This document shows positions 2-289 of a stretch of DNA of 289 nt, piece after piece (the stretch's first letter is position 1; every line of letters begins with the position of its first letter). This DNA comes from Escherichia coli. Lineage in GTDB: Bacteria; Pseudomonadota; Gammaproteobacteria; Enterobacterales; Enterobacteriaceae. A program made the translations under genes and the position numbers. The stretch lies in the NCBI RefSeq assembly GCF_003334385.1, contig NZ_QOWN01000213.1; one strand, given 5' to 3'. The notes under the pieces were generated by a model that made no database searches, had not been told where the DNA came from, and saw only the letters and a program-made list of their open reading frames with translations.

Positions 2-77
2 TGGTGGGTCGTGCAGGATTCGAACCTGCGACCAATTGATTAAAAGTCAACTGCTCTACCAACTGAGCTAACGACCC
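2..77 (-). tRNA. tRNA-Lys, anticodon UUU, complete 76-nt gene with encoded CCA
   Basis: Reverse complement of 2-77 reads GGGTCGTTAGCTCAGTTGGTAGAGCAGTTGACTTTTAATCAATTGGTCGCAGGTTCGAATCCTGCACGACCCACCA. It folds as a canonical cloverleaf: acceptor stem GGGTCGT/ACGACCC, D stem GCTC/GAGC, anticodon stem GTTGA/TCAAT, anticodon loop CTTTTAA with anticodon TTT (plus-strand 42-44 = aaa), variable loop TGGTC, T stem GCAGG/CCTGC with T loop TTCGAAT, and 3' CCA at plus-strand 2-4 (tgg). From memory it is identical to the E. coli tRNA-Lys(UUU) gene family. The paralog cannot be named from the sequence alone; lysZ is possible if this is the lysY-lysZ interval. Confidence 0.97.
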
Positions 78-111
78 ATACGGGTGTTACCTGAAAGATT
101 TTTACTCGGGG

Positions 112-128
112 CCAATCTTTAAGATTGG
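112..128. other. Inverted repeat / hairpin ccaatct-(tta)-agattgg that overlaps the CCA of the orphan tRNA fragment
   Basis: 112-118 ccaatct is the reverse complement of 122-128 agattgg, giving a 7-bp stem with a 3-nt loop (the pairing could notionally extend to 8 bp but that leaves a 1-nt loop). On the minus-strand transcript the orphan CCA is the 5' strand of this stem. Function not established. Confidence 0.45.
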
Positions 129-143
129 TGGGTCGTGCAGGAT
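126..143 (-). repeat. Orphan 18-nt duplicate of the tRNA-Lys 3' end (part of T loop, 3' T stem, 3' acceptor strand, discriminator and CCA) inside the inter-tRNA spacer
   Basis: Plus-strand 126-143 tggtgggtcgtgcaggat is an 18/18 match to 2-19 and 224-241. Identity stops abruptly at 144 (gactc versus tcgaa in the genuine genes). No 5' acceptor strand, D arm or anticodon arm is recognisable upstream of it on the minus strand, so it is not a functional tRNA. Confidence 0.75.
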
Positions 144-157
144 GACTCGCTTCGCTC

Positions 158-184
158 GCCCTACGGGCCGTTGCTGGCGCAACG
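158..184. other. Two adjacent short GC-rich hairpins in the spacer: gccc-tac-gggc (158-168) and cgttgc-tggc-gcaacg (169-184)
   Basis: Read directly from the sequence: a 4-bp stem with 3-nt loop, followed by a 6-bp perfect stem with 4-nt loop. Neither is followed by a T/U tract on either strand. They are probably structural elements of the polycistronic tRNA precursor. Confidence 0.4.
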
Positions 185-197
185 TTATCCTTCACGC

Positions 198-220
198 TTA
201 ACATCTGAGTTTGATGTTAA
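198..220. other. AT-rich inverted repeat ttaacatc-(tgagttt)-gatgttaa, an 8-bp perfect stem with 7-nt loop, 3 nt downstream of the 3' CCA of the upstream tRNA-Lys copy
   Basis: 198-205 ttaacatc is the exact reverse complement of 213-220 gatgttaa. On the minus-strand transcript the hairpin starts 3 nt after the CCA of the 224-289 copy. No U-run follows, so it is not an intrinsic terminator. It is a candidate trailer-processing structure. Confidence 0.45.
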
Positions 221-223
221 AAC

Positions 224-289
224 TGGTGGGTCGTGCAGGATTCGAACCTGCGACCAATTGATTAAAAGTCAACTGCTCTACCAACTGAG
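224..289 (-). tRNA. tRNA-Lys, anticodon UUU, second copy truncated by the window edge (tRNA nt 11-76 present; 5' 10 nt would lie at 290-299)
   Basis: Positions 224-289 are 100% identical to 2-67, and position 223 equals position 1. The D stem/loop remainder, anticodon arm (TTT), variable loop, T arm, acceptor 3' strand and CCA are all present. Only the 5' acceptor strand is missing because the window ends. The repeat period is 222 bp. Confidence 0.93.

Follow-up and report, generated by a model that had tools for sequence, protein, structure and literature searches.

A conserved trailer hairpin displaced onto an orphan tRNA-Lys 3' end in the lysT operon of Escherichia coli

The small hairpin that pairs the CCA of an orphan tRNA-Lys 3' end in the lysY-lysZ spacer of Escherichia coli is an ordinary lysY-trailer/lysZ-leader element, which was moved next to the orphan by the insertion of an RtT-like unit. 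We conclude this because alleles and genera devoid of the unit carry the hairpin on the genuine lysY CCA. Judging from aligned spacers, the 5-bp core of the stem, its only constant part, is kept by compensatory changes. Taken together, we hold these structural and evolutionary statements with good confidence. The best explanation overall, to which we assign a probability of roughly 0.6, is that of a displaced ordinary trailer hairpin with a mild role in delaying processing.

The window, that is, the whole stretch of 289 nucleotides that was analysed, finds a match in all 5,426 complete E. coli genomes. Its minus strand is the transcribed one and belongs to the lysine-tRNA (lysT) operon. According to ARAGORN and Rfam, the tRNA genes in the window are a complete lysZ and the 3' part of lysY, both on the minus strand. 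The features are as follows.

2..77, minus strand: lysZ, complete tRNA-Lys(UUU) gene (ARAGORN; Rfam tRNA model, 79.2 bits; annotation).
78..111, minus strand: rest of the 48-nt lysY-trailer/lysZ-leader module, CCCCGAGUAAAAAUCUUUCAGGUAACACCCGUAU, kept in 21-22 orthologues.
112..128, minus strand: CCA hairpin, composed of CCAAUCU (128-122), a UAA loop (121-119) and AGAUUGG (118-112).
119..143, minus strand: the downstream one of the two 25-nt direct repeats on either side of the 98-nt RtT unit, the upstream one being at 217-241 (repeat finder).
126..143, minus strand: orphan copy of the tRNA-Lys 3' end, AUCCUGCACGACCCACCA, 18 nt (direct repeat; end of the RtT model).
126..197, minus strand: RtT-like core, GCGUGAAGGAUAACGUUGCGCCAGCAACGGCCCGUAGGGCGAGCGAAGCGAGUC plus the orphan end (Rfam RF00391).
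198..220, minus strand: trailer hairpin after the genuine lysY CCA, UUAACAUC-AAACUCA-GAUGUUAA, 8 bp (inverted repeat and folding).
223-78, minus strand: lysY-lysZ spacer, 146 nt.
226-224, minus strand: genuine lysY CCA.
224..289, minus strand: 3' part of lysY (tRNA-Lys UUU), cut by the window edge (Rfam tRNA model at 227-289, 54.7 bits; annotation).

In the predicted fold, the trailer hairpin at 198..220 leaves the genuine lysY CCA unpaired. The module segment at 78..111 ends with A(-2)U(-1) before lysZ and is conserved with or without the RtT unit. A sequence scan of the spacer found no promoter or terminator on the tRNA strand; on the plus strand, two terminator-like matches are the antisense of the RtT-core stem (169-184) and of a lysZ-leader segment (81-93). 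Other Rfam matches (Plastid-ycf2, YrlA and the like) fall on the tRNA genes themselves, far below gathering scores.

The RtT model of Rfam (RF00391) scores 47.6 bits over positions 126-289 of the minus strand, for a gathering score of 45. In the full operon context, the copies in the lys spacers reach 54.4-60 bits and the copy downstream of lysQ 46.7 bits, the latter being annotated as an RtT sRNA by PGAP. An operon of the K-12 type contains five RtT-like copies, each with GAGUCAUCCUGCACGACCCACCA at its end, so that the orphan CCA can be recognized as the 3' end of an RtT-like repeat. The unit immediately follows a tRNA gene and ends in the repeat of the tRNA 3' end with its CCA. The 18 nucleotides at 126-143 are identical to the tRNA-Lys 3' end, and the direct repeat extends to 25 nt (119-143 versus 217-241, 92% identity in the window); in the O157 allele this 25-nt repeat is perfect (ATCCTGCACGACCCACCAATTTTAA). 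Neither ARAGORN nor the Rfam tRNA model finds a tRNA or tRNA pseudogene at 112-160.

Several side observations concern this unit. When the RtT model is aligned to the lys spacers, its 5' half falls on the tRNA-Lys body with a 44-nt insertion; the model positions that look truly homologous are ~57-130 only, and the scores exceed the gathering threshold by little. Substitutions or a deletion have altered the acceptor-strand part of the orphan in the E. coli strains FORC_043, H9Ecoli and MLI104K1 (L125, L128 and L129; homologues of 126-136), where we observe ACGACACACCA, ACGAGCCACCA and ACGAGC-ACCA; despite these mutations, the CCA and the hairpin are unchanged. We also considered the leader segment 111-78 as a decayed second orphan or RtT end and rejected this idea, as its alignment score is reached by 21% of shuffles for the RtT end and 38% for the tRNA end.

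An earlier note on this DNA had pointed out the palindrome and suggested that it places the orphan CCA inside a stem on the minus-strand transcript. Both statements are confirmed here, the second by structure prediction. The plus strand reads ccaatct (112-118), tta (119-121), agattgg (122-128), and a repeat finder agrees, with arms 112-119/121-128 that are 100% complementary. The minus strand thus reads 5'-A(129)CCAAUCU-UAA-AGAUUGG(112), in which bases 128-126 are the orphan CCA. Seven perfect Watson-Crick pairs give this hairpin a predicted ΔG of -6.0 kcal/mol on its own, and it is part of the minimum-free-energy structure of the spacer as well as of the whole window. In four sequence contexts, the pairs from 128-112 to 123-117 form with probabilities of 0.96-1.0, and the one that closes the loop with 0.8; minimum-free-energy folds and pairing probabilities therefore agree in predicting a stable stem around the orphan CCA. 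Within the full spacer the CCA hairpin dominates, the alternative helix not exceeding 0.02.

This competing helix, 123-114/100-91, was discarded as the main structure: its probability is at most 0.02 in every context, and its comparative support is weak (76.8% paired, for 73.5% in shuffles; the register slid by +1 gives 60%). Elsewhere in the minimum-free-energy fold of the minus strand, the 5' strand of RtT, UGAAGGAU (187-194), pairs with the leader sequence AUCUUUCA (93-100). In the closing stem of the Rfam RtT model, UGAAGGAU pairs instead with the orphan sequence AUCCUGCA; the two partners are alternatives. Furthermore, the acceptor 3' strand CGACCC of the upstream tRNA or orphan (135-130) is fully complementary to the 5' strand GGGUCG of the next tRNA-Lys (77-72), and RNAalifold pairs the two (alignment columns 2-7 with 70-75). 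This complementarity is a possible hazard of misfolding between copies in tandem identical tRNAs.

Within this operon, RtT units are present in some strains and absent from others. All four inter-tRNA RtT copies are missing from DS566, and strain 300709 is without the lysW-valZ copy only (a presence/absence polymorphism seen at L126 versus L127; L001 1371-1421; L003). The lysY-lysZ spacer of DS566 is 48 nt long and presents, directly after the genuine lysY CCA, the sequence AUUUUAAACAUUGGUUCCGAGUAGAAAUCUUUCAGGUAACACCCGUAU, which is homologous to the sequence following the orphan CCA of the window. GN04275 has the same arrangement as DS566 plus one extra tRNA-Lys unit; its operon comprises eight tRNAs, after a tandem duplication of the tRNA-plus-48-nt-spacer unit in which the hairpin was duplicated too (L004 1143-1575). 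PK12, at a genuine end, and O157:H7 F1273, at an orphan end, have an identical 48-nt spacer, with the hairpin CCAAUUU-UAA-AGAUUGG. About 4,272 of the 5,426 E. coli genomes have at least 80% of the window in one place, hence the RtT-bearing form. A 65-nt segment containing the hairpin occurs at a median of one place per E. coli genome and at three at the highest, a low copy number that rules out a dispersed palindromic repeat of the REP/BIME type.

The 98-nt unit, comprising the trailer hairpin, the RtT core and the duplicated tRNA 3' end, is located between the 25-nt direct repeats. As these repeats flank it, the unit can be lost by recombination between the genuine and the orphan end. Each repeat consists of the tRNA-Lys 3' end plus AUUUUAA, and its boundary lies inside the hairpin loop. 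The hairpin closes on the orphan CCA rather than on the genuine one because the unit was inserted between lysY and the 48-nt module. The sequestration of the CCA is therefore inherited and is not an adaptation to the orphan.

Related rearrangements were seen in two other places. Superficieibacter sp. 1612_C1 (L104; spacer ATCTAGCATCAAACTCAGATGTAGACTGG...) has retained the CCA hairpin, apart from one mismatch, and the loop holds an inner hairpin, CAUC-AAACUCA-GAUG, with the sequence of the trailer hairpin of the RtT unit (198-220); on account of this identity, it may be a remnant of an RtT unit. The tyrT-tyrV operon is polymorphic too: SK1144 (L130) has a 33-nt spacer and no annotated RtT copies, and the K-12-type operon (L131 10140-11140, MG1655-type) has one copy between the genes and three after tyrV.

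What could such a hairpin do on a genuine end? In the RNase P reaction, the RCCA pairs with G292-U294 in the L15 loop, and pairing of the RCCA with the leader inhibits the ES->ES* step, i.e. the formation of the catalytic complex (PMC9433436). In the lysT operon, RNase P processing proceeds 3'->5' with a minor role for RNase E; RNase II and PNPase shorten the long trailers, and a long 3' trailer makes for poor cleavage by RNase P (PMC4176162). Agrawal et al. describe the basis for protecting nascent transcripts from processing as unclear, and suggest secondary structure or Hfq-like RNA chaperones; they mention neither the hairpin nor the orphan CCA, and report no stable or discrete RNA species from the lysY-lysZ spacer in the wild type (PMC4176162). 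A limited literature search returned no paper describing the CCA hairpin or the orphan ends of the lys operon.

By analogy with this enzymology, the most likely function of the hairpin would be to mask the RCCA and the adjacent AU-rich trailer during processing by RNase P and exonucleases. In the basic form, the encoded C74-C75-A76 of the upstream tRNA and the next two to four trailer bases pair with the conserved segment ending in UGG. The resulting helix would keep the RCCA from docking in the L15 loop of RNase P, and the AU-rich segment it contains would not be offered to RNase E; both would be released only once RNase II or PNPase had trimmed the trailer from its 3' end. The hairpin would then behave as a mild anti-determinant or delay element for RNase P on the upstream tRNA and for RNase E beside the CCA. 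Such a function, derived from established enzymology, remains tentative, and we would put its odds well under even. It would fit the RNase-E-independent, 3'->5' processing by RNase P reported for the lysT operon. However, no such helix is found in 80% of the tRNA-Lys trailers listed, nor in tRNA-Val trailers belonging to these operons, so that the hairpin cannot be the general cause of 3'->5' processing. Next to the orphan, it would at most slow 3' exonucleases a little before they reach the structured RtT core. The CCA that is paired in the window's allele lacks a tRNA body, and there the hairpin is probably a passenger, although it is kept with covariation at a site where it has no obvious relevance to RNase P.

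A broader version of masking would make CCA-masking trailer hairpins a recurrent, selected device in operons of tandem identical tRNAs (Lys-Lys, Ala-Ala) of enterobacteria. Here again, the RCCA would be kept from L15 and the AU-rich trailer from RNase E until trimming from the 3' side; this would impose a 3'->5' order of one tRNA at a time and, in RtT-bearing alleles, silence a decoy RCCA. We consider this generalization unlikely.

A little less probable still is an exonuclease roadblock, at which RNase II or PNPase, running 3'->5' after the RNase P cut at lysZ, would pause at the stem; the pause would either determine where a metastable RtT-like RNA ends on its 3' side or, in alleles that lack the unit, hold back trimming just short of the genuine CCA. 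Seen from the 3' side, the stem is indeed the first structure, followed by the strongly structured RtT core (spacer z-score -3.4), and the tyrT RtT is annotated as a processed RNA; RNase II and PNPase do trim the long trailers of the operon (PMC4176162). However, stabilities of -1.5 to -6 kcal/mol are weak for such a role, and wild-type cells have no reported stable species from the spacer.

The conservation of the hairpin was analysed in spacers matching a pattern of tRNA-Lys end, 30-60 nt and tRNA-Lys start, in one genome per species (at least 120 stretches and at least 165 unique spacers); as the sample was picked by this lys-lys pattern, the figures cover the matches listed. Orthologues were chosen solely by the hairpin-free part of the spacer, CCGAGUAAAAAUCUUUCAGGUAACACCCGUAU, which gave 22 unique sequences among the matches listed. 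These come from Escherichia, Citrobacter, Kluyvera, Enterobacter, Raoultella, Phytobacter, Silvania, Pluralibacter, Pseudescherichia and other Enterobacteriaceae. UGG is found 2-3 nt before CCGAG in all 22 orthologues among the matches listed, and is absent from two weaker orthologues (L058 and L013).

We aligned 21 of the 22 orthologous spacers with MAFFT and scored six rungs starting from C74. In these 21 sequences, 90.4% of the positions are paired, versus 79.4% in shuffles, with a covariation score of 0.331 versus 0.121; none of 500 shuffles (0/500) reaches either value, in a set of related, not phylogenetically independent sequences, which can exceed a shuffle control without any structure. 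Registers slid along the same alignment are 12.7-49.5% paired. Covariation across orthologous spacers, which the earlier note had proposed as a check, takes the form of compensatory changes at two rungs in these 21 Enterobacteriaceae sequences, namely rung 4 (AU13/CG4/UA2/GU1) and rung 5 (UA13/UG5/AU1/CG1). The weak rung 6 is unpaired in 8/21 sequences, and RNAalifold on its own predicts the same 5-bp hairpin. Eight cells of the alignment are G.U and none is A.C, the pattern expected if the structure forms in the tRNA-sense RNA rather than in the DNA or the antisense strand. The discriminator A73 could pair with the base following UGG in 16/21 sequences, the window's allele not being among them. 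Within Escherichia, the top of the stem varies between C-G, U.G, U.U and, in DS566, a non-compensatory U.C; the DS566-type allele with its U.C mismatch has a ΔG of only -1.5.

The earlier note had allowed for a coincidental palindrome. A Watson-Crick helix of at least seven pairs anchored at the first C of the CCA arises in 3/5000 dinucleotide shuffles of the 48 nt after the CCA (0.06%, P=0.0006), and any perfect hairpin of at least seven pairs, anywhere in a shuffled 146-nt spacer, in 2.8%. Together with the compensatory covariation, this 0.06% rate leads us to reject the coincidence. A neutral palindrome arising in AU-rich spacer DNA without selected structure would be in keeping with a stem that is short and AU-rich, whose top varies in E. 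coli down to a non-compensatory U.C allele, and which is missing from two orthologues; the shuffle control, as noted, can be exceeded by related unstructured sequences. However, chance accounts poorly for a stem anchored with P=0.0006, for the presence of at least four pair types at each of two rungs with changes on both sides, for slid registers that remain at or below 49.5%, or for a ratio of 8 to 0 between G.U and A.C. It also leaves aside the excess over shuffles, about 3- to 6-fold by sample among the matches listed, and the C74-anchored helices of unrelated trailers. We therefore consider a chance palindrome improbable.

Does the stem distinguish the pseudo-3' end from genuine ends during precursor processing, as the earlier note had proposed? 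In the window's allele the contrast holds as a description, with a free CCA on lysY and a paired one on the orphan. As a general marker of ends it fails, and five lines of evidence speak against it. The homologous hairpin stands directly on the genuine lysY CCA in DS566, GN04275, PK12 and several other genera; a hairpin shared by genuine ends in so many strains and species is no marker of fake ones. Helices anchored at C74 occur at similar rates in genuine (20%) and orphan (15%) trailers. Conversely, 85% of orphans do without such a helix, and the orphans of tyrT have none. Finally, orphan and genuine hairpins do not differ significantly in stability (-4.4 versus -3.1 kcal/mol, p=0.19). A higher stability of orphan hairpins was thus discarded as a trend only, with n=12 versus 10.

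The underlying counts, all among the matches listed, are the following. C74-anchored helices of at least 5 pairs are present in 63/310 genuine tRNA-Lys trailers (18.5 expected) and in 19/127 orphan trailers (5.7 expected), both rates being ~3.4 times the shuffle expectation. Of the 60 RtT-bearing spacers listed, 40 have no helix at either end; it stands on the orphan alone in 14 and on the genuine end alone in 6. Uninterrupted C74 helices of at least 5 pairs are found in 30/165 unique lys-lys spacers listed, for 5.3 expected, and 20 of these 30 helix-bearing spacers follow genuine tRNAs. The excess is concentrated, among the matches listed, where the same tRNA follows (32 versus 9.0 expected); last-in-operon tRNAs listed show none (7 versus 5.6 expected). 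The archetypal RtT copies, those of the K-12 tyrT operon, have orphan ends with the trailer of genuine tyrV and no CCA stem. C74-anchored helices are missing after the tRNA-Val genes that share RNase-P-dependent operons with tRNA-Lys; unrelated trailers with such helices occur in Tatumella, Chimaeribacter, Pantoea and tRNA-Ala spacers.

The tRNA-Ala trailers deserve separate mention. In Photorhabdus, Xenorhabdus and Moellerella, the tRNA-Ala(GGC) that comes first in a tandem pair is followed by C74 helices of 6-12 bp, for example CCAAAUACUUUA...UAAAGUAUUUGG (loci L005, L011, L023, L040, L047, L052, L053 and L085), and among the matches listed 8/19 unique trailers of this tRNA have a C74 helix, for 0.5 expected. 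The stem arms in Moellerella, CCAAUCU/AGAUUGG, are those of the window. Another register is found in K-12, where the genuine lysT and lysZ trailers (L002 967-990 and 1783-1803), as well as L002 1353-1376, contain GGUGG or GGUGGGU, complementary to CCACC/ACCCACC of the tRNA-Lys 3' end (C71-C75). This would be a second end-masking register, one that would have the acceptor stem as its competitor at genuine ends.

Could the stem nonetheless have evolved to hide the orphan CCA from 3' exonucleases, RNase P or the CCA-adding enzyme? The window itself invites this thought, with an orphan CCA paired at 0.96 or more beside a free lysY CCA; among the matches listed, orphan-only hairpins also outnumber genuine-only ones in RtT-bearing spacers (14 versus 6), and hairpins in orphan context are on average more stable (-4.4 versus -3.1 kcal/mol). 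However, RtT-less E. coli and other genera have the same hairpin on a genuine CCA, its frequency is equal at the two kinds of ends (20% genuine, 15% orphan) with 85% of orphans unmasked, the tyrT orphans have no stem, and the stability difference has a p-value of 0.19. Maturation of tRNA 3' ends depends on the tRNA body, namely the acceptor and T arms. As the 18-nt orphan has no such body, a special mask would be needless. An origin in hiding the orphan is thus very unlikely in our view. Even less probable is a DNA-level palindrome at which the RtT unit would have inserted or recombined: the 25-nt direct repeat flanking the 98-nt unit does end in the hairpin loop, and in Superficieibacter (L104) this loop contains a different insertion, but the hairpin is conserved with covariation in RtT-less loci, the occurrence of G.U and not A.C pairs suggests RNA, and the other RtT copies of the operon are not beside such a palindrome.

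The displaced trailer hairpin thus stays the preferred reading, and its interest depends on whether it is functional. If so, it would be a structure acting in cis from the trailer of a pre-tRNA to mask the CCA end, which is universally required, and could explain why lysT is processed by RNase P from the 3' end and why RNase E is dispensable. The RtT-like repeat, for its part, is shown to be a presence/absence unit between 25-nt direct repeats. Its alleles therefore amount to natural matched constructs in E. coli, with the same hairpin on either a genuine end or an orphan one. Without a function, the hairpin is a small conserved stem in a discarded spacer, of minor interest.

Several known systems bear comparison with this element. 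As for RtT RNA (RF00391; tyrT archetype), the spacer scores above the gathering threshold, directly follows a tRNA gene and has a duplicated 3' end with CCA. However, the CCA hairpin is outside the model and overlaps it at the CCA only, the tyrT copies have no CCA-pairing stem after their orphan ends, and the 5' half of the alignment in the lys spacer is borrowed from the tRNA body, with the 44-nt insertion. Lalaouna et al. reportedly described in 2015 the 3'ETS of leuZ as an sRNA sponge. Like that sponge, our hairpin is conserved, belongs to a tRNA spacer that is transcribed and may do more than be discarded, but it is a 17-nt stem-loop, whereas the sponge site is single-stranded. The structured 3' trailers and terminators of the valU and lysT operons, which maturation removes (PMC4176162), also include a stem-loop directly after the encoded CCA in the lysT polycistronic transcript. 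The hairpin differs in having only 2/7 G-C pairs and no U tract, in being followed by CCCCGAG, and in a stem that contains the CCA itself instead of starting after it. The scan found no terminator-like site on the minus strand, and the hairpin does not qualify as an intrinsic (Rho-independent) terminator.

The closest parallel is the anti-determinant of RNase P in which the RCCA pairs with the leader. In both cases C74-C75-A76 are Watson-Crick paired by flanking precursor sequence, which would preclude docking in L15 until unwound; for the hairpin, these three bases are paired with a predicted probability of at least 0.96, with covariation in the adjoining rungs. The partner differs, being the 3' trailer, in a local structure, where the known system uses the 5' leader. 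In the window, the RCCA belongs to an 18-nt orphan rather than to a complete tRNA with a 5' end for RNase P to cut; in RtT-less alleles and other genera, it belongs to a complete tRNA. By this analogy, we infer that the mode of action closest to that of the hairpin would be RCCA pairing with the leader, the 3' trailer here taking the leader's place.
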